Made by a program: the position numbers and the translations under genes
Part shown: positions 4,670 through 34,723 of the stretch, one piece after another
Position numbering within the stretch: position 1 is the first letter of the stretch
Layout of the letters: each line of letters starts with the position of its first letter
The notes under the pieces: model-generated
Told to the model about the DNA's origin: nothing
The model's input: only the letters and a program-made list of their open reading frames with translations
Databases searched by the model: none
Assembly: GCA_964201585.1 (NCBI GenBank)
Contig: CAXNDX010000001.1
Span: 1-34,723, forward strand
DNA: 34,723 nt
Source: Candidatus Woesearchaeota archaeon
GTDB lineage: Archaea > Nanobdellota > Nanobdellia > Woesearchaeales > GW2011-AR9
Direction of reading: 5' to 3'

Positions 4670-5461
4670 ATGACCTATTTAAAAAACACATTTTTGCCAA
4701 TGGTTCTCAGCTCAATGTATGTCTGCGCCTCTTATTCTCCTCCAATCTATGGCCAAGAAGCAGCCCCTAACGTACTTTTTCAACAAAGTAATCTTGAAAC
4801 AAAAATACTTGAAGATAAAGAAGAAAAACCACTCTCACAACCCTATCGCTTTAGTGAGCAAGACCTTAACAAATATCGGCGCTGGAAACAACAAGCAATC
4901 GACCATTCAAAAAAAACAGGAGAAGTTGTTCTTATTATTAATAAATCAACCTATGAATTAGATGTATATCAAAAAGGCCAATTTCAAAAAAAATTTCCGA
5001 TTGAATTAGGAAAAAATAATTACGATGACAAAAAAATTCAAGGAGATAATACCACTCCTGAAGGTTTTTATAAAATTAGAAAAGTCAAAGATATCAATAA
5101 TACCCATTTTTATCGCGCCGCAGAACTTGACTACCCAAACAAACAGGATATCGCAGAATTCCATAGATTAAAAAAAACAGGTGCGATTCCTAAAAATGCA
5201 ACAATTGGGGGAGATATCAATATTCACGGTAAAGGGAGTGGGATTTCTCCTCTCCAAGGTGGTTCCAATTGGACACAAGGATGTGCGGCTCTTTCTAATG
5301 AAGATATGGATGAATTATTTCAGTATCTAAAACAAGAGACTCAAGTTTTAATCATCAAATATGATAGCCCTATTATCTCAATTATTCCACCTGATAGCAA
5401 AACAGTTATAAAACATCTCAAATATCTCACTAAATCCATTGATCAATCAATTTTTAAGTAA
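4670..5461 (+). CDS. Secreted L,D-transpeptidase (YkuD/ErfK fold) protein
   Basis: Hydrophobic N-terminus. The catalytic region INIHGKGSG...GGSNWTQGCAALSNEDMDELF matches the YkuD HG...GC signature. Confidence 0.75.
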   Translation: MTYLKNTFLPMVLSSMYVCASYSPPIYGQEAAPNVLFQQSNLETKILEDKEEKPLSQPYRFSEQDLNKYRRWKQQAIDHSKKTGEVVLIINKSTYELDVYQKGQFQKKFPIELGKNNYDDKKIQGDNTTPEGFYKIRKVKDINNTHFYRAAELDYPNKQDIAEFHRLKKTGAIPKNATIGGDINIHGKGSGISPLQGGSNWTQGCAALSNEDMDELFQYLKQETQVLIIKYDSPIISIIPPDSKTVIKHLKYLTKSIDQSIFK

Positions 5462-6526: not shown

Positions 6527-7933
6527 TCACTTCTCCACCAACAACTCCACCACATTCTGATCCGGATCAACAAACGTCGTAATTACCCCATAACTCTTCT
6601 TCATCATCCGTTGCCCAATTACAACTCCTTTCGCTTCCAATTTCTCCGTAATCCGCCCCAACTCCTCAACTGAATTCACACGCAGCTGCACAAGCACCGG
6701 ATTATTTTTATTATACGTAAACGTATACACTTCTCTATTCTTTTGTGGTTCAATTGCAAACGTCGTCTCCCCTGTTTCAAAGCCAAACCAATTAGAAGTA
6801 TTCTTCTCACACGCCACAAGCCCAACCACATCCCGATAAAACGCAACCAATCGCGTCACATCAGACGTATACACATTCACATACGACATCTTCAACCCCT
6901 CTGACCTCGCTGAATTCTTCACCTCAACCATCGCCCCCGCAACCAACAAAGGAAACGCAATCGTCGCATCACAATACACTTTCACATGCAACGCATCAGG
7001 CCGAACTTTCCCCCACGAAATCGCTTCCTCAACTCGCGCACCCGAATCCGACCCATCAAACTCCTGCGCCGTATTAATATACACTACATAATCAAACCCC
7101 TCGCGAAAAATATTCGCATTCAACGCAAAATGTTTACTTATTCCCCCACCTAAAATAATTCCACCCGTCTTATCAACATTCAGCGTCAGATCCACAATGG
7201 CTTTAATCTCCCCTGCAACATCAACATAAAAATCAGGATGTGATTGCTTGAAAAAGAAAATCATATCCCCAAACGAACCATCAATCAACCCCGGACAAAA
7301 AACAGGAATATCATTCTTTGCCGCCCAATACAAAATCGATTTCTCATCATTAATCTTTAATCCAATCTCTCGAATCAACTCATGCGGCGTAAAAATCTTC
7401 CCCTCTTTCTTCTGTCTATCATACATCGCCAACAAAAACTCCTGCATAAACTGATCAAAATACGCAAACCGATCATTTGGTACAAACACATTCCCAATCC
7501 GATTAATTCCATGCTCAAATAACATCCTCCCTGACGCCTCAAACTGCCCCAGCACAAACGGCTTCAAACACTTAATAATATCCTCTTCAATTCCCCCTGC
7601 CGAAGTTACCAACACCTGCACTTTCTTATTCTTAACAAGATACTTGATAATCTCCCTATTCCCCGAACTCACCATATTCGACGTATAAGCGAGAAATATC
7701 ATCGCTTTCTCTCGTAGCATCACGCGCACAACCTCCATCGCTTGCGCTAAGTTAGTACCCTGAAACCCCATCTTACTATACGCCTGCAAAAACGACTGAA
7801 AATCCAACCCTTGCTCAAAATCATACCCTTCAATCACCGGATACCCCTCAAGCGTCATCGTCTCTTTAGGCATATATTGCGCATGCTTTTCTTTCAACCC
7901 ATCCTTATTATTCATATTCTCTGTAAATTTCAT
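6527..7933 (-). CDS. dys: Deoxyhypusine synthase fused in frame to a C-terminal glyoxalase/VOC domain
   Basis: DHS hallmarks are present: VTSAGGIEED, ILGGGISKHF, EAISWGKV. The same ORF continues without a stop into MSYVNVYTSDVTRLVAFYRDVVGL...VVELLVEK (VOC fold). GGAGG lies 11 nt upstream of the ATG at 7933. The track start is at 7951. Confidence 0.85.
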   Translation of the reverse strand: MKFTENMNNKDGLKEKHAQYMPKETMTLEGYPVIEGYDFEQGLDFQSFLQAYSKMGFQGTNLAQAMEVVRVMLREKAMIFLAYTSNMVSSGNREIIKYLVKNKKVQVLVTSAGGIEEDIIKCLKPFVLGQFEASGRMLFEHGINRIGNVFVPNDRFAYFDQFMQEFLLAMYDRQKKEGKIFTPHELIREIGLKINDEKSILYWAAKNDIPVFCPGLIDGSFGDMIFFFKQSHPDFYVDVAGEIKAIVDLTLNVDKTGGIILGGGISKHFALNANIFREGFDYVVYINTAQEFDGSDSGARVEEAISWGKVRPDALHVKVYCDATIAFPLLVAGAMVEVKNSARSEGLKMSYVNVYTSDVTRLVAFYRDVVGLVACEKNTSNWFGFETGETTFAIEPQKNREVYTFTYNKNNPVLVQLRVNSVEELGRITEKLEAKGVVIGQRMMKKSYGVITTFVDPDQNVVELLVEK

Positions 7934-7985
7934 AGTATAGCGAGCCTCCATTAAATTCGAACAGTTTATTATGCAATTTGCGAAC

Positions 7986-24458: not shown

Positions 24459-25046
24459 CTAATTTTTCGCGTTCACCGTTAAATGCACAACTAACCCGCC
24501 TTCTCCCGACTTAAAGTACTGTACTTTATCTACATACGTATGCATAAATGACGTCCCTGTACCATTATTCGTACCCGGTTTTGGCGTATTCGTAAACTCA
24601 TAGAAATCTAACATTCGCTCTCGATGCTTTCCTTCTTTATGCCGTAACACAAACGGAATAAAATCCGCATTAAGAATCCCTCCCTGGTCAATTACTGAAA
24701 TTTCAAGCGTATCTTCTGCAATTTTATACGTCAACGTTATTTTTTTTGCAGGATCCAGTTTATTACCATGCTGGTGTGCATTCAATACCGCTTCATATAA
24801 CGCCGTAAAAAAATTAGGATTATATCCTTGATTTTCCGCCTCTCGCCCAATAGGTCCAATAATTTCTCTAATTTGCCCCGCATATTCTTTTCGATTTGTA
24901 CTTAAACAAAACTCTTTGATAATATAACTTGGCTTAATTTCATACGTAGGAATCTCAAAATTTCGTAAATCGACTGTTCCTTGACGTCGAAAATGCTCCC
25001 GAAGAACTGAATCTAAACTATCAACATCAAAAATATCTAGTGCCAT
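24459..25046 (-). CDS. HATPase_c-type protein resembling anti-sigma serine kinases (RsbW/SpoIIAB family)
   Basis: N box: ALYEAVLNAHQHGN. G1: ISVIDQGGI. G2: NNGTGTSFM. It is short (195 aa) and single-domain. TTTATAAA at 25068-25075 is centred 25.5 nt upstream of the ATG. Confidence 0.6.
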   Translation of the reverse strand: MALDIFDVDSLDSVLREHFRRQGTVDLRNFEIPTYEIKPSYIIKEFCLSTNRKEYAGQIREIIGPIGREAENQGYNPNFFTALYEAVLNAHQHGNKLDPAKKITLTYKIAEDTLEISVIDQGGILNADFIPFVLRHKEGKHRERMLDFYEFTNTPKPGTNNGTGTSFMHTYVDKVQYFKSGEGGLVVHLTVNAKN

Positions 25047-25163: not shown

Positions 25164-25994
25164 TTACTTCCCTTTCCTCACAAACGCATGCTTAATTTCA
25201 TCGCCATCAAACCCTTCCGGCGCTTTTCCCGTCATCGCATAATGATACAACGCCGTCAAGTAAATCCCTTGTAAACTCGCACTCACAACACTCAACCCCA
25301 CCCAATACACTAAAACAATAACTCCCACAATTAACACCGCACTCAGCGAACCACTTAATAACGCAATTCCTAACGGCACAATACCAAGTACTCCCAGCAA
25401 AAAGAATATCCCTCCCATCGAAAACTGCCCAACAACCGTCTCCCCCCACGTTTTCTTCAAAATATGCGTAGATCCTTTAATCGATTCAAACACCGATTTA
25501 TTCTCAAAAATCATCACGGGAACCACAAAAAAAGTAAGCAGCGTCCACGCCATCCCCAAGAGAGACAACACAATTTGTCCTACAAAATTATTCTCTAACT
25601 TATCTGAAATCATGCGTAAAATTAACCCAACCGTCGCTGAAATTACCGCCCATAACAAAATATTTGGCAAATGCTTAACCGCCGCATTCATTCCATCTTT
25701 AACCGTCGGATCTCCGCCTTGCAGTCGTATCCGCGCACACGCCACTAACCCTACATTAAAAAAAATCACAATAAAATAGCTTAAGATATAATACACAAAT
25801 AATAAACTATATAACATCACTCCTGGCGCAAATAACTCTGCTACAAATAACGGAATCACAAAAGACAGCAATAGCCCCATTGTAATAATACCTGACAGAA
25901 TCGGAAACCACATCATCTCCTTATCTTTTAATAAGATAGCATAACTCTGCTTCACAAGTATCCAGCTTCTTGACCAAGTTTCAAACATAACCAT
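25164..25994 (-). CDS. Multi-pass membrane protein, family not recognised
   Basis: 276 aa with about six hydrophobic helices. Confidence 0.65.
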   Translation of the reverse strand: MVMFETWSRSWILVKQSYAILLKDKEMMWFPILSGIITMGLLLSFVIPLFVAELFAPGVMLYSLLFVYYILSYFIVIFFNVGLVACARIRLQGGDPTVKDGMNAAVKHLPNILLWAVISATVGLILRMISDKLENNFVGQIVLSLLGMAWTLLTFFVVPVMIFENKSVFESIKGSTHILKKTWGETVVGQFSMGGIFFLLGVLGIVPLGIALLSGSLSAVLIVGVIVLVYWVGLSVVSASLQGIYLTALYHYAMTGKAPEGFDGDEIKHAFVRKGK

Positions 25995-26014: not shown

Positions 26015-26188
26015 TTAAAACTTATGGAGAAACTTCCTCATCCGAAAACCTTTCCTAAACTGTTCGCGCAGTGCTTTAGAATCAACTTGTGTTAAAATCC
26101 TTTTCAATTTCTTCTCCCCATAGGGGATATACCTCCATTTTAATACGCAACTTTCTTCATCATTAATATTTTTGATACAAACATCCAT
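26015..26188 (-). pseudogene. Truncated vapB paralog (internal in-frame deletion, no PIN partner)
   Basis: MDVCIKNINDEESCVLKW-RYIP-YGEKKLKRILTQVDSKALREQFRKGFRMRKF matches the N- and C-termini of the 82-aa VapB at 27490-27738. It lacks the central RHH helices. Confidence 0.5.
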
Positions 26189-26445
26189 ATTTACATAAAA
26201 ATTAGCGAGAAAGCCTCCAGCTTTAGCTGGAGGATGAATCGCAGTACGCTGATTTTTATGTTCAAGAAAATATGCAACGACATATTTTCTGAACAGAAAA
26301 CCGAAACAATCGGTTTTCTTGTTCCGAAAACTCGCCAATGTAGGCGAGGGCGTAAAGCCACGGCTTTTAGCCCGCGGATAGTTGCCGCAAGGCAACTTGA
26401 GAACCGCAGTGACCCTAGCCCGAGTAGGCGAGTTTTCGTTACACT
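26189..26445 (-). ncRNA. GC-rich, highly structured element of unknown class between the duplicated vapB promoter and the vapB remnant
   Basis: A 12-bp closing stem (26325-26336/26427-26438) encloses two hairpins: 26348-26373 and 26374-26407 (tetraloop GCAA on the + strand). Three more hairpins follow at 26291-26324, 26265-26290 and 26214-26233, then T5 on the - strand. Confidence 0.4.
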
Positions 26446-27090: not shown

Positions 27091-27489
27091 CTACAATTCC
27101 AAAATCACTTTCTTTAACCCTGGCACTCTCTTAAAATCACTATCTAACGTCAATAATGTATCTCCTTTCTCCATTGTCACGGCTGCGATAAATAAATCAA
27201 ATTGTGCAATTCCTAAACCTTTCTTTAACATCTGATGCAGCACCTCAGAAAAAAGTAAACCGCTGCGATACGTTGTTTGTAAAATTGTGTATTGTTCTAA
27301 CCTCTCTAATATCCTATCTTTATTTTTATCATTCTTGCCTAAAATCCCATAATAAAATTCGCAAAAAGTGAAGATCGTAATTGCCAATTCCACATCCGGC
27401 GCATCTTTTAACACCGCAATTTGTTGAATAATCTTTTCATTTCCTTTTTCTACTTCAATTAATACGCTTGTATCAAGTACAAATCCCAT
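27091..27489 (-). CDS. vapC: PIN-domain toxin VapC
   Basis: MGFVLDTSVLIE, then FCEFYYG, then LLTLDSDFKRV. The start codon abuts the vapB stop. Confidence 0.85.
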   Translation of the reverse strand: MGFVLDTSVLIEVEKGNEKIIQQIAVLKDAPDVELAITIFTFCEFYYGILGKNDKNKDRILERLEQYTILQTTYRSGLLFSEVLHQMLKKGLGIAQFDLFIAAVTMEKGDTLLTLDSDFKRVPGLKKVILEL

Positions 27490-27738
27490 TCAGAACTTCC
27501 TCATTTTAAACCCTTTCCTAAATTCTTCACGTAGTACCTTAGAATCTACTTGTGTTAAAATTCCCTTTAATTTTTTTTCTCCATAAAGAACCTTCTCCCA
27601 ATTACTTCCCTGACATGCACTATGATGTTCTTTGATGACTTTTGCAAAAAAATCCCCCATCTTTACTCCATGCCGTATTGATTCTGATTTAAACACACAC
27701 CATTCTTCTTCATTTATATTTTTGATACAGACATCCAT
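27490..27738 (-). CDS. vapB: RHH-type antitoxin VapB
   Basis: VCIKNINEEEWCVFKSESIRHGVKMGDFFAKVIKEH is a ribbon-helix-helix pattern. TTTAAATA is centred 26.5 nt upstream of the ATG. Confidence 0.7.
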   Translation of the reverse strand: MDVCIKNINEEEWCVFKSESIRHGVKMGDFFAKVIKEHHSACQGSNWEKVLYGEKKLKGILTQVDSKVLREEFRKGFKMRKF

Positions 27739-27827: not shown

Positions 27828-28724
27828 CTACGTCCTTGGCACATCTGTAGGTGAAACAACTTTTGTTCGAATATGATAATGCGTAGAGTGCCCCGGCTCA
27901 TGACGTAATACCCCTCCAACCTCATTCCATCTCTGCATCCCATACTTTCCAACCACATACGACCGTAATCCATTAATCAATTTCTGATCTAGAAAAATCA
28001 TCTCAACCTCAAACGGCCCTCGTACTACAGAATCAATAAACAACCAATTCGCATCAAGCGCCTGAGTATTATTAAAATCCGGATGTAACCCTCCTCTCTT
28101 TTTCATTTTAGTTGTGGCATTATAATATCTTCCTTCAACCACGTCATACCCATAAATCCCCACATCTACATCTCGACCATTATGATGACTTTTATGCGGT
28201 CGTAATCTCCCTCCTCCTTCCCGACTTAAATCATGCACAACCAACGGCACATCATACACCTCTTTCATCACACATGCCGAATAATTGATCACATCAACCA
28301 ACTCTTGGCGTCCATACGTCCGTTCAGGTTTTCGTATCTCTACTAACTCGCTCTCTTTCAACTTCATCTGTGAACGACCAATCAATCCTCGCAACCCTGA
28401 AGCTGGCATTCTATATTCATTTAATTTTACTCGACACATCACCTGTGGCCTATGCTCTTGTTCATTCATCTCTACCATACACTGTTCTAACGTTTTCCCT
28501 TCAGAAACAAGCCCCGTATATTTTTCTCTCTTATCCTCATTAACTTGTTTCACAAAAGAAGGAATATACTCCTCTGCTCTCACATAAGAACTATGTGCAG
28601 CTGCAACTGCTCCGACGACAAACGGCAGCAATCTTTTTCCAATTAAATGTAAATATTCTTTCATTCTTCTTAGTATCTCACGTACTCTACACCTAAACCA
28701 AGAACATACATTAAATCTATTCAT
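27828..28724 (-). CDS. LAS-family zinc peptidase resembling penicillin-insensitive murein endopeptidase MepA (M74)
   Basis: RPHKSHHNGRDVDVGIY and EPGHSTHYHIRT match the H..(.)..D and H.H zinc ligand motifs. A signal-like segment follows the alternative ATG at 28664 (MKEYLHLIGKRLLPFVVGAVAAAHS). Confidence 0.7.
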   Translation of the reverse strand: MNRFNVCSWFRCRVREILRRMKEYLHLIGKRLLPFVVGAVAAAHSSYVRAEEYIPSFVKQVNEDKREKYTGLVSEGKTLEQCMVEMNEQEHRPQVMCRVKLNEYRMPASGLRGLIGRSQMKLKESELVEIRKPERTYGRQELVDVINYSACVMKEVYDVPLVVHDLSREGGGRLRPHKSHHNGRDVDVGIYGYDVVEGRYYNATTKMKKRGGLHPDFNNTQALDANWLFIDSVVRGPFEVEMIFLDQKLINGLRSYVVGKYGMQRWNEVGGVLRHEPGHSTHYHIRTKVVSPTDVPRT

Positions 28725-28972
28725 CGGATTATTTGTAAAAAAAGTAAAAATAATCTAAAAACAACCTCAATCTAAAATAAAAAAATAAATCTATTTTCAT
28801 AAAGTGAACTGCTTTATCAAAAAGCATATACTGTATTTGTTTTTCACTTCAACTTCTTCAACTTATGAAATATCAATATCGGATACAACAAAATCAACAC
28901 GGCATACATTCCAAACAATAACCCATACCACTCTTTGTAAAATAACAGTCCTGCCATCGCCAACGTTCCCGC

Positions 28973-29953
28973 TCATCCAATATTCAAAAACAACTCTCTA
29001 CACCACCAAAAATTCATATCTTTTTCTTTCACATCCATACTAATTGCCAATCGTACCGGCGAACTAACTGTTGCTATAACTGTATACACTCCCATCACAA
29101 CTAAAAACCATACCAATGTAGTTGCAAACATAAATCCAATCGCACACAAAAATAACGACGAAAATAAAACCACAATATACTTCTTTCGCTCCTGTGTTCC
29201 ATCTGACACCTTTGCCACAAAAAACCCCGCAACTACCCCTGTAATTGCCACATAACTCCAAAAAAATCCTACTTCGGTTTCATTCTGCAAAAATCTCAGC
29301 GCATACACACTTAATATTACCGAACTAAAGAAATGTAATGCTCCCTCAAACATCGATATCGTTTTCAACCCTTTAAACCGTGCAATCGCCTCCCCTCGCT
29401 GCACCTTCCACACAACATCAGGAACTTTTCGCCAAAACCACCACATCGCCATAAAATATAATCCCGCCATCAGCAAAAATAACCACTTATATCCATAAAG
29501 CCGCATCAACAACGCTCCAATTGGTGGAATAATCATCGTTAACATTCCCGGTGCTACCATATAACTCCATGAATCCTGTGCATGTCTTGCTGAATGCGAC
29601 TCCTGAAAAAAAATCATATTCAACGGCACCCAGAATAAAATAATTAATCCTGCCCAACCAATAACATACACAAAAAACGCAATTTGCAAAGGCAATACAA
29701 AAAATCCAAACGCCATAACACAATTCAACATAAAACTCATACGCAAAAACCACTTACTCTTATACGTAGTCAAAAAAAACAACATCACTACACTCACAAT
29801 CGCAAGAGCCATATATCCAAAAATAAAAATCCACTTCCCATATCCCTGTTCGCGTAATAAAAACGGTAAAAAAAGAAATGAAATCGCCCAAAATCCCGTT
29901 TGTGTAAGCAGTAAGCGCAAGGGTAAAGAAAATCGTAAATTAAATCTCATCAT
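28973..29953 (-). CDS. MFS-type transporter, truncated at an in-frame TGA after about 10.5 TM helices
   Basis: A 6+central loop+4.5 TM layout. The same frame continues past the TGA (28973-28975) for 42 codons to the next stop at 28844-28846, completing TM11 and adding TM12. The track start at 29956 is GTG; the ATG is at 29953. Confidence 0.65.
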   Translation of the reverse strand: MMRFNLRFSLPLRLLLTQTGFWAISFLFLPFLLREQGYGKWIFIFGYMALAIVSVVMLFFLTTYKSKWFLRMSFMLNCVMAFGFFVLPLQIAFFVYVIGWAGLIILFWVPLNMIFFQESHSARHAQDSWSYMVAPGMLTMIIPPIGALLMRLYGYKWLFLLMAGLYFMAMWWFWRKVPDVVWKVQRGEAIARFKGLKTISMFEGALHFFSSVILSVYALRFLQNETEVGFFWSYVAITGVVAGFFVAKVSDGTQERKKYIVVLFSSLFLCAIGFMFATTLVWFLVVMGVYTVIATVSSPVRLAISMDVKEKDMNFWWCRELFLNIG

Positions 29954-29979
29954 CACTGCTCCCTATTTTTATACTACTC

Positions 29980-30441
29980 TCATTCTCTTAACACCGCAAC
30001 CATTCGTCGTAATATAAGATCCTCACGTTCCATGGACCCTTTATGAAAATCAAACCACACTCCATAAAACCACTCGCGTGAAAACATCCTCATTGAACCA
30101 TAATGTGGATCCTGCACATAAATATTCTTATCATCAATTCCTGCCACAAGTGACCAATGTCCCTCATCAGTTGACCACCATTGCACTAACACCGGAATAT
30201 TCTGAGTAATATACTCATTCACATTCGCAAATTGCGCAGTATCAATCACTCTTGTCTGCAATCCAAAATAGTTGCACCCTTTGATAATCCCATCTAACGA
30301 CACCCCTTTCTCACGTGTCGCTCCACACACCTGGGCAATCTCCTCTTCTGTTTTCTCACTCCCATAAAAATCAAGAATCATCTTAAGACATGCCGGTCCG
30401 CAAAACCCTGGTGACTGTGTAAACGGCTTATAATGCATCAT
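29980..30441 (-). CDS. Papain-fold thiol peptidase, C39-like (Peptidase_C39_2 / phytochelatin-synthase-like)
   Basis: FTQSPGFCGPACLKMILDFYG (catalytic Cys context) and EGHWSLVAGIDDKNIYVQDP (His/Asp). The track start at 30447 is TTG; the ATG is at 30441. Confidence 0.65.
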   Translation of the reverse strand: MMHYKPFTQSPGFCGPACLKMILDFYGSEKTEEEIAQVCGATREKGVSLDGIIKGCNYFGLQTRVIDTAQFANVNEYITQNIPVLVQWWSTDEGHWSLVAGIDDKNIYVQDPHYGSMRMFSREWFYGVWFDFHKGSMEREDLILRRMVAVLRE

Positions 30442-30447
30442 ACTCAA

Positions 30448-31644
30448 CTACTCACTCAACCCTTGTTTATATAACTCTCGCAAAAACATATTTCCTTGCG
30501 CCGCTCGTTCTGCTGTAAATCGTGTTGCGTTATATCCATCTTTTCGTAAATATCTATTTAAAGATGTTGAAGGATTAATTCCACTCTGTGTCATCTCAAT
30601 TATGGGATTAAGATATCCTTGCTCTGATTTAGACAACCCTTGTTCTGCAAATTGTATAATTTGACCCACATACTTCTGCATATGCTCAGATGTAAGCCCA
30701 TATCTAATCGCTTCCTGTTCTAACATTCGTAACGTTCGCAACGTTGGCAACACAATTTTTCGCTCCGAAAACTCATACTCATTATCTCGTTGCGCAATCT
30801 CAACTTTAATATTCTCTTGTAACATTCTATCATTACACCCTTTATACAATGCCATGGCTCCTAACCCATACTGCAACGGCGTGCTGTCACATGTTCGTAT
30901 TTCAAACGTTCCTGTTTTTCCAATTCCATCACGTGTACGAATCGGTGCATATCCTGTATTTTCTGGTGTAAACAACGAACCAAACTTTTCCGCTGACATT
31001 CCTGACGCACTCTGCCACTGCCAAAACCGTTCAATATTCTGCTTCTCCAACTCCTCTAACGTCTGCGGATAGTCCTGCAGTTGCGCATGCAATGGAAACG
31101 CTGAAAACACATGATACCTCATCAATTGGATTCGATGGCAATTCAAACTATTCAAGCCATCATAGCGTAAAGGTGACGTCGATGTAACACCATACGACAT
31201 CGGATCAAGTGCATATAACAACTGAAACTGCGCTAATTTTTTCTTCTCATTCGTATCTTGAGAAATATGAATATGGATTCCTGAAATCGTATTAATCTTT
31301 AAATTCTTCTCCCTGCCAATAATCGTATCATACGCATCATACCTCTCTTTACCTTCACGAGTAATTCCTTTTCCTGCTCCATACTCACTTGCCGCTACCG
31401 GATACACTCCATAATCAGCACAAATCTGTTCTAACAACCCTAATTTCTCCCTCATCTCTATTGCCAATTCACTAATTGTCTCCAGAGGTTTAGAATTATA
31501 CTCTACCTGTGCTAACGTCGCTTCGGCAACAAAACAACTCGGATTTCGTCTATCACCTAGAACTGTATCTGCTATATTAGAAAGATACCCCTCTTTATCT
31601 ATCAAATTCAATTCCACTTCCACACCTATAGATGATTGACTCAT
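30448..31644 (-). CDS. Carboxylate-amine ligase, glutamate-cysteine ligase family 2 (GCS2/YbdK-like)
   Basis: IGVEVELNLIDKEGYL, ISGIHIHIS and FEIRTCDS are typical of the GCS2 family. Confidence 0.8.
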   Translation of the reverse strand: MSQSSIGVEVELNLIDKEGYLSNIADTVLGDRRNPSCFVAEATLAQVEYNSKPLETISELAIEMREKLGLLEQICADYGVYPVAASEYGAGKGITREGKERYDAYDTIIGREKNLKINTISGIHIHISQDTNEKKKLAQFQLLYALDPMSYGVTSTSPLRYDGLNSLNCHRIQLMRYHVFSAFPLHAQLQDYPQTLEELEKQNIERFWQWQSASGMSAEKFGSLFTPENTGYAPIRTRDGIGKTGTFEIRTCDSTPLQYGLGAMALYKGCNDRMLQENIKVEIAQRDNEYEFSERKIVLPTLRTLRMLEQEAIRYGLTSEHMQKYVGQIIQFAEQGLSKSEQGYLNPIIEMTQSGINPSTSLNRYLRKDGYNATRFTAERAAQGNMFLRELYKQGLSE

Positions 31645-31702
31645 AATGTTATACCTCTTTTATCACAATTATTTAGCAAACATAAATTTTATTTGTAATC
31701 TA

Positions 31703-32740
31703 TTATTTGTCTAACTTTCCTGAACGTTCTAACGCTTCTGTCGCAATTCGCACAATTAACTGATCATACGTCATTCCCGCACCCTCAATCATATTTCGTA
31801 ACGTATCCCCAGTACTATGGATATCTGGATTAGCATTAATATCAATAATATACGGCACCGCTCGCCCTTGATCATCTCGTTTCACACGATAATCAAACCG
31901 TCCATAATCAGTTATTCCAAACAATTCCGCAATTCTTCCTGTATAATATTTTGTCATCTCCTCTAACGATTCTGGCAAGCCCGAAAATTCTGCCTTTGCC
32001 ACTTCATCCCATTTAATATCATAATCCCGAAACTTCGCTCTCCCCTCAAATCCCTTGCGGAACGCAAAATGCGCAACTTTCAAATACGATTTATTCGCAT
32101 TTCCCACAAAAAAACACGATAACTCTTTAAAATCTGCATCTTCCAGATACTCTTCTAACACCCACTGTGTCAAATCTCCTTTCTTTTGCTGTATCTCTTG
32201 TACTTTACCGCTCACCTGCTCAGGAGTATACATCACCGAATCTTTCGTCATGCCATAACTCCCATACGAATTACGCTGCTTTAAAATAACCGGAAACTTT
32301 TGTCCATTCCTCTTCTCGCTCATACCATCTCCCACTTCATCCCATTGCGAAAGTAATTGTACTTGCGGCGTTGGAATTCCCATCTCTTGCGTATATAATT
32401 TTGTAATATACTTATCTAACGTGCTTCGTAACACCGCACTTCCTGATCCCGTAAACGGAATTTTCAACACTTCCATAAACGACGCAATATGTGATTCATA
32501 TGCAATATTTTGATAAATCCCTAAATCTGCACAATTGAATACCAAATCAACTAGATTCCCTTCTTTTAACCGTTGCAAACCTTCTACCCATCGCAAATGA
32601 GTATCCAAATACAATCCTGCCACTGTATGCCCTTCTTTTCGTAATGCCTCTGTCACATCTTGTTGTATACCCCAAGAATTTTGTACTGGTTTTAGTTCAC
32701 TTTCACTAATCCCTTGATGTAATACGATAATATTTGCCAT
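31703..32740 (-). CDS. ATP-grasp ligase of the D-Ala-D-Ala ligase-like type
   Basis: N-terminal Ddl-like domain (VDLVFNCADLG...IPFTGSGS...DKYITK), a central FPVILKQRNSYGSYGM, and the C-terminal YGRFDYRV...YIIDINANPD. Confidence 0.8.
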   Translation of the reverse strand: MANIIVLHQGISESELKPVQNSWGIQQDVTEALRKEGHTVAGLYLDTHLRWVEGLQRLKEGNLVDLVFNCADLGIYQNIAYESHIASFMEVLKIPFTGSGSAVLRSTLDKYITKLYTQEMGIPTPQVQLLSQWDEVGDGMSEKRNGQKFPVILKQRNSYGSYGMTKDSVMYTPEQVSGKVQEIQQKKGDLTQWVLEEYLEDADFKELSCFFVGNANKSYLKVAHFAFRKGFEGRAKFRDYDIKWDEVAKAEFSGLPESLEEMTKYYTGRIAELFGITDYGRFDYRVKRDDQGRAVPYIIDINANPDIHSTGDTLRNMIEGAGMTYDQLIVRIATEALERSGKLDK

Positions 32741-32914
32741 ATAAATCCTCTTTTCACTTTATTATTCTTTTCTTTCTATGATTAATCACATTTCTCAAAC
32801 TATTAAAACGTATTTTTCATATTCTTTTCAAAACAGAAAAATATATAAGTAAAAAACACTTTTTCACAAAGAATAAGAACTTTCAACAAATAAAAATAAA
32901 ATATAACACACCCC

Positions 32915-33889
32915 ATGCTCCACAAAAAAGATTTACGGCTCTTATATGAACTCGATAGCAACTATCGTAAAACATTTACTCAGATCGGTAAAAAAATAAG
33001 AATGAGCGAACAATTAGTCAGCTATAAAATACATTCATTTGAAGAAAAAAAAATTATTCTTGATTATGTTCCTAATATCGACTATTCCCGTTTCGGCTAC
33101 CTTACGTTTATCGTCTTCTTCAAAGTCCATTACATCAACGAACAGAGCTTTGAACGCCTCACTCATAAACTCAAACAACATGAAAATATCACCTCCATAA
33201 TTGAATGTGACGGCAACTATGATTTGATGGTCACCTTCGCCGCAAAAAACCCCTCCTCTTTCAACAAAAAATTAAAACAATTAGTCTCTGAAAATCCAAA
33301 AGAACTTCGTCATCATACTATTCTTACAACCGTTGTAGAACATCACTTCCCTCGCAGTTATTTAATCGACTCAGAAGACCGCTATGACACCATTTTAGGC
33401 GGTGATCGTGAAGAAATCAAAATTGATCAACTCAATCTTAATCTCATCAAATCATTAATCAACGGCAAGAAAAAAGTAATTGACATCGCGCAAGAAATAA
33501 AAATCACTCCTAAAACCGTCATCACACACTTAAAATGGCTCGAAGAGCAACAAATCATCAAAAGCTATCGCCTCTTACTCAATCCTAAAGCAATGGACGT
33601 CTTTGCCAATATCATTTTAGTCAGATACCGCAATATTACATTAGAAGACGAAGAAAACTTCCGTCGCTTCTGTAAATACCATCCTAATGTCGTTGAATTC
33701 ACTAAAACATTTGGCGAATGGGATGTCGTCGTCCACACCGAAACAAACCATCGCGAACAATTCCGTAAACTCTCATTGCAGATTCGCGAAAAATTTGAAG
33801 ACATCATCGAAGCCAGCGACAACTTTCGCGTATTCAACATCCCCAAAAAACAATATCTTCCTCAAGAAATATTTAACGAAGAAAACTAA
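32915..33889 (+). CDS. Tandem-duplicated Lrp/AsnC-family regulator (two HTH+RAM units)
   Basis: Unit 1: DLRLLYELDSNYRKTFTQIGKKIRMSEQLVSYKI. Unit 2: NLNLIKSLINGKKKVIDIAQEIKITPKTVITHLKWLEEQQIIK. Each unit is followed by a RAM-like beta-alpha-beta segment. Confidence 0.75.
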   Translation: MLHKKDLRLLYELDSNYRKTFTQIGKKIRMSEQLVSYKIHSFEEKKIILDYVPNIDYSRFGYLTFIVFFKVHYINEQSFERLTHKLKQHENITSIIECDGNYDLMVTFAAKNPSSFNKKLKQLVSENPKELRHHTILTTVVEHHFPRSYLIDSEDRYDTILGGDREEIKIDQLNLNLIKSLINGKKKVIDIAQEIKITPKTVITHLKWLEEQQIIKSYRLLLNPKAMDVFANIILVRYRNITLEDEENFRRFCKYHPNVVEFTKTFGEWDVVVHTETNHREQFRKLSLQIREKFEDIIEASDNFRVFNIPKKQYLPQEIFNEEN

Positions 33890-34031: not shown

Positions 34032-34723
34032 ATGATTATCACAAATTATATCTCTGAAATCAGTCGCTATCCTAATCTCACAAGAGAAGAAGAATACTAT
34101 CTCGCACAAAAAGCAAAATTAGGAGACAAAGAAAGTAAACATACTCTCATAAAATCAAATCTTCGTTTTGTTGTCTATCTTGCTAAAAAATATCATCATC
34201 CTAAATACAACAATTTAATTGACCTCATTCAAGAAGGCAACATTGGTCTGATCAATTCCATAGATAGATACATACCCCAGTCTGGCAACAGATTAATAAC
34301 CTATGCCGCATACCACATTAAAGAACACATCATTACTTACTTGAAAGATAATCGATTTCCCATCGAGACGACAACAGAAGAAAAACGTCTCATTCCTAAA
34401 TTAAATCAATTCAGACAACAATACACCCAAGAAAAAGGAACTATTCCCTCTCTTGAAGAAATTACTTCCTGGCTCAATCAATATGCCCAAAAAAGATATG
34501 ACTCAACCGATGCCCTTTCTTTACTAGAACTCAGCCAGCAATCTCTAATCTATTTAGACACTCCTCTTAACGATAAGAAAACAGAAAGCTGGCACGATCG
34601 CATTCCCCATTCTACCCTCACAAGTTTAGATCATCTCGAACAACACAACTATCAATCAATAATTGAAAAAACAATTGACGCTCTAGAGATAGAAGATAAC
34701 ATAAAATATATCCTCCTCGCTCA
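34032..34723 (+). CDS. Sigma-70-family protein (regions 1.2, 2, 3 and the start of 4); 3' end lies outside the window
   Basis: Absent from the track because it runs off the window without a stop. YISEISRYPNLTREEE (region 1.2). LIKSNLRFVVYLAKKY...LIDLIQEGNIGLINSIDRY...ITYAAYHIKEHI (region 2). GTIPSLEEITSWL and IYLDTPLND (region 3). Confidence 0.85.
   Translation, partial: MIITNYISEISRYPNLTREEEYYLAQKAKLGDKESKHTLIKSNLRFVVYLAKKYHHPKYNNLIDLIQEGNIGLINSIDRYIPQSGNRLITYAAYHIKEHIITYLKDNRFPIETTTEEKRLIPKLNQFRQQYTQEKGTIPSLEEITSWLNQYAQKRYDSTDALSLLELSQQSLIYLDTPLNDKKTESWHDRIPHSTLTSLDHLEQHNYQSIIEKTIDALEIEDNIKYILLA

Follow-up and report, generated by a model that had tools for sequence, protein, structure and literature searches.

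The window analysed here, a stretch of 34,723 nt from a Candidatus Woesearchaeota archaeon (GenBank assembly GCA_964201585.1, contig CAXNDX010000001.1, positions 1 to 34,723 of the forward strand), carries a cassette of four genes that encode a Ddl-like ATP-grasp ligase, a GCS2-type carboxylate-amine ligase, a stand-alone C39 cysteine peptidase and a transporter of the major facilitator superfamily (MFS), divergent from a gene for a tandem Lrp/AsnC regulator. We tentatively read the cassette as a ribosome-independent, two-ligase pathway for a small gamma-glutamyl peptide (a di- or tripeptide, possibly a thiol) with the C39 protein as its amidase, in a DPANN-type archaeon, and give this reading a probability of about 0.45. 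A first-pass annotation of the same DNA had proposed that such a peptide is assembled, trimmed by the peptidase and exported; the proposal fits the comparative evidence described below, except that the MFS gene is limited to close relatives.

In transcriptional order the cassette comprises the genes of the ATP-grasp ligase (31703..32740, minus strand, 345 amino acids), the GCS2 ligase (30448..31644, minus strand, 398 amino acids), the C39 peptidase (29980..30441, minus strand, 153 amino acids counted from the ATG) and the MFS transporter (28973..29953, minus strand, shortened by a premature TGA). The four co-directional genes are separated by stop-to-ATG gaps of 58, 6 and 26 nt, and the coordinates of the open reading frames (ORFs) agree with the earlier description. 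Pfam gathering scores and NCBIfam curated cut-offs served as thresholds for family calls. All the domain calls of the first-pass annotation pass the former: PF07478 for the ATP-grasp protein (38.5 bits, gathering score >24; E = 1.2e-9), PF04107 for GCS2 (38.2 bits, >21; E = 1.4e-9), PF03412 for C39 (67.9 bits, >22; E = 1e-18), PF07690 for MFS (49.0 bits, >33.4; E = 5.6e-13), and PF01037 plus two helix-turn-helix (HTH) stretches for the Lrp protein. NCBIfam profiles are in accord with these calls, though all five proteins fall far under every equivalog cut-off. Related loci or contigs that carry GCS2 or short-C39 homologues are designated by L-numbers, and their neighbouring genes were annotated by BLASTP and phmmer against seed proteins and by Pfam and NCBIfam profiles.

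With the GCS2 protein, a single-sequence search of the PDB gave no match at E<=1 and a profile search gave only weak matches to plant glutamate-cysteine ligases (GCL), so that a structure prediction was needed. The AlphaFold2 (AF2) model, built on a 16-sequence alignment, has a predicted local distance difference test (pLDDT) score of 90.9. The top Foldseek matches of this model are the YbdK structures 1r8g/1tt4 (E 3e-12, TMq 0.68), followed by the plant GCL 2gwc, GshA and GshF, while glutamine synthetases and PafA appear only later (PafA at rank 48). An invariant core of E9, E11, E41, E48, H124, H126, R171, R176, E248 and R250 is kept in 11-16 sequences, down to 19% identity, and by analogy these residues may bind metal and phosphate. 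The protein scores 40.2 bits on the YbdK model TIGR02050 (cut-off 176.4) and at most 31 bits on the GshA equivalogs (NF0100xx, cut-offs 332-437), and the EgtA model TIGR03444 gives E=0.051. On these profile scores GCS2 belongs to a clade separate from the curated YbdK, GshA and EgtA families. A housekeeping GshA was rejected, since all curated cut-offs are missed by far and the gene stands in an operon with a second ligase.

This clade is small: a word-seeded search of 5.8e9 clusters returned 18 proteins, and a profile search of 1.84e9 representatives returned 489 matches at E<=1e-3, of which 109 reach E<=1e-30. Within the genome collection, members of the clade were found in archaeal metagenome-assembled genomes (MAGs) only, mostly of DPANN archaea; the species-representative genomes are labelled Woesearchaeota, Aenigmatarchaeota, Nanoarchaeota or 'archaeon', and one third-party MAG set is labelled 'uncultured Methanosarcinales archaeon'. 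The window and the related contigs carry archaeal markers, including ribosomal proteins L1, L10/P0, S3Ae, S19e and L31e, eIF-1A, deoxyhypusine synthase, exosome and proteasome subunits, and a threonyl-tRNA synthetase with an archaeal editing domain. An N-x-x-N-C-H-R loop is typical of the core of the GCS2 clade and is absent from more distant members. One more distant protein of 480 amino acids (L028), encoded near GlmS-like, Wzz and DUF4012 genes, was excluded for its unrelated context.

Among the Ddl profiles, the ATP-grasp protein passes only that of the generic C-terminal domain; it scores 71.7 bits on TIGR01205 (cut-off 245.65) and 74.7 on NF002378 (cut-off 243). Ddl enzymes are its best PDB sequence matches. 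In a HMMER alignment with 8evy, four residues of the Ddl active-site motifs (Lys, Arg, Asp and Asn) align and the ATP- and Mg-binding positions are kept. The Tyr of the K-Y pair is replaced by Trp and the Glu Mg ligand by Asp; the loop closing over the second D-Ala, which is Ser-Leu in Ddl, is Thr-Leu here and carries an insertion. In E. coli DdlB the D-Ala-binding and catalytic set is K215/Y216, R255, D257, E270, N272 and S281, to which these positions would correspond. The protein is described here as a predicted, active-looking Ddl-like ligase to which no specificity is assigned. It was not accepted as a true Ddl, for all curated cut-offs are missed widely and the gene lies in an operon with GCS2 and C39; hence neither ligase falls into the housekeeping Ddl and GshA families that the first-pass annotation had named as the possible undoing of its proposal. 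No mur genes were found in the window or the related loci, and a literature search on Woesearchaeota, Ddl and peptidoglycan found no report.

Homologues of the C39 peptidase begin with MMHYKPF, which supports the ATG start of the 153-residue protein. The catalytic residues Q9, C14, H95 and D111 are intact and invariant in the C39 clade, and a W-F-D-F...L-I-L-R segment forms a conserved extra C-terminus. The AF2 model (pLDDT 85.4) matches first the ComA peptidase domain (1.5e-8), then PCAT1, PeiR (1.9e-7) and LahT150. The earlier description of a phytochelatin-synthase-like peptidase holds at the level of the clan and not below it: the Nostoc phytochelatin synthase (PCS) ranks 43rd for this model (TM 0.70, E 1.5e-4), after C39 domains, PeiR and toxin domains, and PF05023 has no match in C39 at E<=0.1. 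Membership of the PCS family was rejected on both counts. No ABC transporter gene was seen near C39 in the window or the related loci read, and the clusters contain no conserved small ORF that could be a double-glycine precursor gene, which could be encoded elsewhere; the absence of a precursor-peptide ORF noted for the window thus extends to the related clusters.

When metagenomes were scanned with the short C39, 154 relatives came up. A Ddl-like ATP-grasp gene stands beside the short C39 in 14 of the 74 loci that lack GCS2, often with an overlap of 4 nt; C39 and the Ddl-like gene thus recur together as an independent pair. By analogy, such pairs support the view of a synthetase together with its amidase. 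As an observation apart, L034 (496-1986, minus strand) encodes a Ddl-like ATP-grasp protein with a C-terminal GNAT acetyltransferase domain beside the short C39. L035, L036 and L038 are similar, the ATP-grasp-GNAT domains being confirmed in L034 only; a second Ddl-like ATP-grasp gene follows in L034, L035 and L038, giving another amidoligase set without GCS2.

The arrangement of the cassette is not due to chance, because the same order recurs in relatives whose GCS2 proteins are 47-49% identical, and in closer ones. Across the loci read, the pairwise identity of the GCS2 proteins is no more than 38-50%, three closer pairs excepted, and the ATP-grasp/GCS2/C39 trio is co-located in distant relatives, where the first-pass annotation had allowed that it might not be; this speaks for its reading. 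In the window, L009/L010, L012, L030 and L032, the divergent tandem Lrp gene faces Ddl-like, GCS2 and active C39 genes, followed by MFS, DUF6159 or GATase_4 genes, with 4-nt gene overlaps in L009. In L013, L024 and L015 the third gene encodes an Amidohydro_2 protein, with MFS and M74 genes optional, and in L001 and L015 glutamate dehydrogenase, GCS2 and Ddl-like genes stand together. Another form combines a DUF3335-type gene, GCS2 and GATase_4, with a glutaredoxin-like gene about 1-4 kb off (L011, L014, L017, L018, L021, and also the cut contigs L019 and L020), and often lies beside the gene of ribosomal protein S3Ae. Single loci show further variants: a GSP_synth-like gene, GCS2, GATase_4, DUF3335, an unassigned gene, GATase_4 and a glutaredoxin-like gene (L006); a tandem Lrp gene divergent from GCS2, a GshF-C-terminal-type ATP-grasp, GATase_4 and, further on, a glutaredoxin-like gene (L016); GCS2, a GshB-like ATP-grasp, Amidohydro_2, an unassigned gene, DUF3335 and, further on, a glutaredoxin-like gene (L027); GCS2, DUF3335, GCS2 and GATase_4 (L029); and a tandem Lrp gene divergent from GCS2 alone (L004). 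On a Neighbor-Joining tree, the GCS2 proteins of each of the first three arrangements cluster, and those paired with DUF3335 fall on several branches.

The conserved logic is therefore GCS2 plus a second amide ligase plus an amide hydrolase, with the tandem Lrp and a small redoxin as frequent companions, and each part is exchangeable; the quartet as a fixed unit, as first described, has to be given up. The role of second ligase falls to a Ddl-like, GshB-like, GshF-C-terminal-like or GspS-like protein or to another GCS2, and that of hydrolase to an active C39, to a DUF3335 form that is apparently inactive, to an EgtC-like GATase_4 or to an Amidohydro_2 protein. The GshB-like ligase of L027 matches PF02955 (8.6e-35, 120 bits) and NF003573 (6.4e-47). 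The GshF-C-terminal-type ligase of L016 matches NF002688 over positions 432-753 of 756 (3.9e-52, 177.6 bits, cut-off 425) and scores equally on cyanophycin synthetase, so that the evidence is at family level only; the GSP_synth match in L006 (28.5) lies just under the Pfam cut-off of 29.3. For the GATase_4 protein of L012, the EgtC model is the best match. The DUF3335-type partners (L011, L014, L017, L018, L021 and L006) have the catalytic His replaced by Asn in all six and the catalytic Cys replaced by Thr in four, while the short C39 of the window keeps its triad; to judge from these replacements, the DUF3335-type partners are probably binding proteins without catalytic activity. Eight distinct loci have a YruB-type glutaredoxin-like gene about 1-5 kb from GCS2.

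Comparison with two close relatives points to replacement of the central module. At the nucleotide level, L013 and the window are 82% identical in the Lrp gene, 84% in part of the promoter region and 79% in the MFS and M74 genes, whereas the ligase region of L013 (2709-5842) matches window positions 29980-32740 only over about 500 nt of GCS2, at 65%. At the protein level, L013 is 87% identical to the window in Lrp, 36.5% in ATP-grasp, 44% in GCS2, 76% in MFS and 72% in M74, and has an Amidohydro_2 protein instead of C39. The corresponding values for L032 are 88.5% (Lrp), 88.5% (ATP-grasp), 80% (GCS2), 84% (C39), 85% (MFS) and 69% (M74). Since L032, whose flanks have diverged about as much as those of L013, keeps the window-type module, the ligase-hydrolase module appears to have been exchanged inside a conserved frame of regulator and transporter.

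The regulator gene (32915..33889, plus strand) encodes a protein of 324 amino acids in the arrangement HTH-RAM-HTH-RAM. The duplicated, divergent regulator described in the first-pass annotation stands: AsnC_trans_reg and HTH_24 each match in two stretches, and the gene is conserved in distant relatives. Both halves match NCBIfam Lrp/LysM/LrpA models, with every equivalog cut-off missed. Lrp homologues are divergent to the GCS2 cluster in L004, L009, L012, L013, L016, L030 and L032, and in L004 the tandem Lrp gene keeps this position though GCS2 stands alone. The AT-rich intergenic control region (32741..32914, no strand assigned) separates the Lrp gene from the cassette by 174 nt and contains, besides imperfect inverted repeats, the TATA-like TTTATATA. 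Against L013, positions 32795-32870 show 84% identity, even though this conservation does not extend to the ligase genes downstream. A search of this region for Lrp operator sites found just imperfect AT-rich repeats and one short conserved block, and we suggest that the regulator may bind here.

For the transporter, described at first as of a 12-transmembrane type, the MFS profile match stands, but the C-terminus appears to be lost to an in-frame TGA and the 12-transmembrane body is probably not intact. The 369-residue orthologue of L013 aligns by tblastn in one frame from 29953 to 28865, through the TGA at 28973-28975. The corresponding codon is CGG in L030 and L032 and CGA in L013, all for Arg, and the MFS genes of these three loci extend 36 codons past the TGA to a stop that is still present in the window at 28865-28867. 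The in-frame remnant (28865..28972, minus strand, 35 codons plus the ancestral stop) translates to AGTLAMAGLLFYKEWYG..., which matches the residues of L013, L030 and L032 beyond the stop. The cassette is also present on a public contig of separate assembly, where MFS is called as 325 amino acids plus 37 amino acids; the latter 'gene' was considered as a precursor or tag and rejected, as it is the displaced MFS C-terminus. The TGA is either a nonsense mutation or a population variant: the last 35 residues are lost, or the gene is polymorphic or decaying. Within the loci read, MFS is present only in close relatives (the window, L013, L024, L030 and L032).

Two further genes lie downstream on the minus strand. 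One encodes a MepA-like metallopeptidase of the Peptidase_M74 family with a hydrophobic N-terminal segment (27828..28724; PF03411 2.1e-7, NF006947 1.3e-7); it follows MFS in L013, L024, L030 and L032 and is absent from L009 and L012, so its functional link to the cassette is uncertain. The other encodes a multi-pass membrane protein of the DUF6159 family (25164..25994; PF19656 3.8e-46), which stands directly after C39 in L009/L010 and further downstream in L024, L030 and L032, and is a possible alternative membrane partner. In the window, toxin-antitoxin genes separate M74 and the cassette from the DUF6159 gene, while the two genes are closer together in L030 (about 300 nt) and L032. Among the former, a small ORF (27490-27738, minus strand) precedes a PIN-domain toxin gene (27091-27489). 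The C-terminal part of 26015-26395 (minus strand) repeats this ORF with the middle missing (MDVCIKNIN...YGEKKLK.ILTQVDSK.LRE.FRKGF.MRKF), a decayed second antitoxin-like copy.

The gamma-glutamyl pathway could proceed as follows. GCS2 would use ATP to activate the gamma-carboxylate of glutamate and join it to an amino acid, giving gamma-Glu-X; glutamate is suggested as the substrate by the glutamate dehydrogenase gene that adjoins GCS2 in L001 and L015. In the presumed order of reactions, the Ddl-like ATP-grasp ligase would then add a residue at the C-terminal carboxylate, in the manner of GshB or of the GshF C-terminal domain, or would alternatively pre-form a dipeptide acceptor. The C39 protein would be the cognate amidase or transpeptidase that trims, recycles or edits the product, a role modelled on the CHAP amidase of glutathionylspermidine synthetase (GspS) or on phytochelatin synthase acting on glutathione. 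A membrane protein, either MFS (truncated here) or the DUF6159 protein, would export the product or a conjugate, outward transport being likewise presumed, and the tandem Lrp would set expression in response to an amino acid as its supposed ligand.

That X is cysteine and the product a thiol is a more doubtful part of this reading. Cysteine is, to our knowledge, the sole acceptor with biochemical precedent in the GCS2 fold, and we know of no characterised role of the GshB / GshF-C-terminal ligase type other than adding glycine to gamma-Glu-Cys. All the characterised relatives that the GCS2 fold search brought up are gamma-Glu-Cys ligases, sister loci have GshB- and GshF-like partners, and redoxin genes lie nearby; GshA-type matches are also reported for DPANN archaea, no archaeal GshB being recognised (PMC7278568). 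Against these points, the ATP-grasp ligase of the window is Ddl-like, giving blastp E=0.003 against the GshB-like and E=3.0 against the GshF-like protein. The N-x-x-N-C-H-R loop of the core clade is not conserved in L027, whose GCS2 is paired with the GshB-like gene, and the acceptor may for this reason differ. The redoxins, none of which is in the window, are YruB-type with a variable CxxC (one CPWS) and have no clear glutathione-binding signature; they are a possible pointer to a glutathione-type thiol, short of proof.

Apart from the thiol, several observations besides those on the partner ligase, the acceptor loop and the redoxins weigh against the pathway as a whole. The MFS transporter of the window appears C-terminally truncated, which makes its function doubtful. 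C39 domains normally cut after the Gly-Gly of long leader peptides, not in tripeptides, and in the loci with DUF3335 the C39-like partner, to judge from the loss of its catalytic His and mostly also its Cys, could not be the amidase. In 60 of the 74 short-C39 loci without GCS2, the neighbours are unrelated and no ligase adjoins; the wider family being mostly without ligase neighbours, C39 is not a dedicated marker of the cassette. In addition, we infer all the substrate identities.

An unlikely alternative is that the cassette makes an exported bioactive di- or tripeptide (an antimetabolite, a signal or a host-interaction factor), like the bacilysin-type clusters of an L-amino-acid ligase and an MFS transporter, with C39 or the amidohydrolase as a maturation, pro-drug or self-immunity hydrolase. 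An MFS gene does follow the ligases in the window, L013, L024, L030 and L032, a secreted-type M74 peptidase adjoins, and the module swap of L013 within flanks of about 80% identity is as expected under diversifying selection. However, the window has a truncated transporter, there is no evident gene for resistance or target mimicry, and the commoner form of DUF3335, GCS2 and GATase_4, in conserved housekeeping synteny beside S3Ae and Cbf5/TruB genes and without an exporter, resembles core metabolism.

Less probable still is a cycle of gamma-glutamylation and deglutamylation, in which GCS2 adds glutamate as a transient protecting or carrier group to an amine or amino acid, a further enzyme modifies the latter, and the hydrolase removes the group. 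Such groups are used in the synthesis of ergothioneine (EgtA/EgtC) and butirosin (BtrJ/BtrH/BtrG) and in the Puu pathway. Whatever its fold (C39, EgtC-like GATase_4, Amidohydro_2, AAT), a hydrolase is present throughout, and papain-fold transacylases such as CtaG are among the matches of the C39 model. BtrH, in turn, is described as a close relative of C39/C70 (PMC10318531). Speaking against this cycle, the clusters read contain no conserved tailoring enzyme (methyltransferase, sulfoxide synthase or carrier protein), and the conserved second ligase would have no obvious role in it.

Tagging of the Pup type, which the first-pass annotation had named as an alternative, would have C39 uncover Gly-Gly or Glu at the C-terminus of a small protein, which GCS2 (with its PafA-like fold) and/or the ATP-grasp ligase would then join to target amines. 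C39 domains cleave after a double glycine, and those of ComA, PCAT1 and LahT are the best matches here; PafA is among the GCS2 fold matches, and the inactive DUF3335-type proteins could be peptide-binding subunits. But neither the clusters nor their surroundings contain a conserved small ORF, the intergenic gaps of the window measure only 58, 6 and 26 nt, and in fold GCS2 stands much nearer to YbdK and GCL, which are small-molecule ligases, than to PafA. Iyer et al. 2008 (PMC2588565) also decided against tagging for similar neighbourhoods, and we regard it as highly improbable.

The weakest case is that of cell-envelope peptide metabolism, in which the ligases build or recycle a murein- or pseudomurein-like stem peptide together with M74 and YkuD enzymes: both genes are in the window (27828-28724 and 4670-5461), Glyco_hydro_3 genes lie near GCS2 in several loci, the pseudomurein endoisopeptidase PeiR is a strong fold match of C39 (1.9e-7) and the ATP-grasp protein weakly matches an archaeal pseudomurein ATP-grasp model (2e-5), but that protein misses all Ddl and pseudomurein cut-offs widely, no Mur-type ligase or lipid-carrier gene occurs in any locus read, and the M74 linkage is confined to close relatives.

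The gamma-glutamyl peptide pathway that we favour can be compared with several known systems. Like GshA with GshB, or GshF, which is a gamma-GCS domain fused to a Ddl-like ATP-grasp domain, the cassette places a gamma-GCS-fold ligase beside an ATP-grasp ligase, of GshB type in L027 and of GshF-C-terminal type in L016; unlike them, its GCS2 is of a separate clade, the ATP-grasp ligase of the window falls in neither glutathione-synthetase family, and the operon includes a peptidase, a regulator and a transporter. GspS and trypanothione synthetase also combine an ATP-grasp synthetase with a papain-fold cysteine amidase on the same amide bond, and the short C39 / Ddl-like pairs with 4-nt overlaps look like a split version of GspS, and L006 has a GSP_synth-like gene; the amidase of GspS is, however, a fused CHAP domain, whereas C39 is separate here. 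The C39 domains of ComA, PCAT1 and LahT are the best sequence and fold matches and share the conserved Gln, Cys, His and Asp, but the C39 of the window is stand-alone, has the extra C-terminal segment, and has neither an ABC transporter nearby nor a double-glycine precursor found in the clusters. Phytochelatin synthase (C83) is of the papain clan, has a related fold and acts on a gamma-glutamyl tripeptide; it differs by PF05023, which C39 does not match, and by its low rank. EgtA and EgtC likewise pair a GCS2-family ligase with a GATase_4 hydrolase, as in L012, and EgtC removes a gamma-glutamyl group; no EgtB, EgtD or EgtE accompanies the present genes, the EgtA model matches GCS2 of the window only at the E-value given above, and the window has no GATase_4.

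Iyer, Burroughs and Aravind described in 2008 GCS2-sized ligases beside GATase-like thiol peptidases or gamma-glutamyl cyclotransferases, as well as ligases fused to papain-fold domains, and argued for glutathione-like peptides over protein tags (PMC2588565). The claim that the four-gene combination has no known precedent is thus half right: nothing has been characterised experimentally, but such sets had already been predicted, and the cassette is of that kind. It resembles their neighbourhoods in having a GCS2-sized ligase beside a thiol peptidase or amidohydrolase without a Pup-like ORF, while theirs are bacterial, with a GATase-like peptidase, a gamma-glutamyl cyclotransferase or a transglutaminase fusion. 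New here are the DPANN clade of GCS2, the true, stand-alone C39 with an intact triad, the presence in the set of a second ligase from at least four families, the tandem-Lrp control and the module exchange between close relatives. According to a survey of the papain superfamily, DUF3335 occurs in fusion with peptide-ligase-like GNAT domains, and C39_2 genes are met close to MFS transporters (PMC10318531). Rawat and Maupin-Furlow (2020) report that DPANN archaea have GshA-type matches, that some methanogens have split GshF-like pairs and that GshB is recognised in no archaeon; which small thiols most archaea use is not known (PMC7278568).

A conserved, regulated two-ligase pathway is unexpected in the small genomes of DPANN archaea and is likely to be important to them. 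Their genomes are very small, and hosts are believed to supply most of their metabolites. We consider it conceivable, though on balance doubtful, that they make their own gamma-glutamyl peptide, possibly a thiol cofactor replacing glutathione, and that swaps of the ligase-hydrolase module vary the third residue between strains; the molecule would then differ by strain, as a swap inside the fixed frame of regulator and transporter changes that residue. If the product is a glutathione-like thiol, the GCS2 clade supplies candidate genes for archaeal small-thiol synthesis; if it is exported, it could be a host-interaction molecule. In either case the cassette is a natural mix-and-match of ligase folds (GCS2, Ddl-, GshB-, GshF- and GspS-like) with hydrolases (C39, Ntn, amidohydrolase). 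Its gene logic will not astonish a specialist, and it offers a testable route to a small peptide, possibly a thiol.

Some further observations concern the neighbourhoods. A small cysteine-rich, membrane-anchored protein with the motif CC.E.R.QL.C, not assigned to a family, always accompanies the Glyco_hydro_3 gene, in five loci (L012 7478-7822, L014 9163-9531, L016 7203-7715, L017 9148-9501 and L021 10382-10843), and in four of these the two genes stand together between GCS2 cluster and glutaredoxin-like gene. The Lrp gene of the window has as its neighbour, on this archaeal contig, a sigma-70 gene of bacterial type (34032-34721, plus strand, regions 1.2 and 2), which is cut by the window end, and about 9 kb from it the product of 24459-25046 (minus strand) is weakly similar to the anti-sigma kinases RsbW/SpoIIAB. 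In L004 (15449-16735), a sigma-70 gene with all four regions likewise lies near GCS2.

Scans of the window for tRNA and Rfam families gave no match. The GC skew is strongly negative in every 1-kb bin of positions 1-34000 (-0.10 to -0.54, mostly -0.25 to -0.47). This unusually large skew is not just a coding-strand effect, since it is also negative where the genes lie on the plus strand (about 11-15 kb). Two enzymes of bacterial-murein type, the YkuD L,D-transpeptidase (plus strand) and the MepA-like M74 peptidase, are encoded on an archaeal contig. In addition, the gene at 6527-7951 (minus strand) is publicly called as a 474-residue deoxyhypusine synthase with a glyoxalase-fold domain, apparently an unusual fusion.

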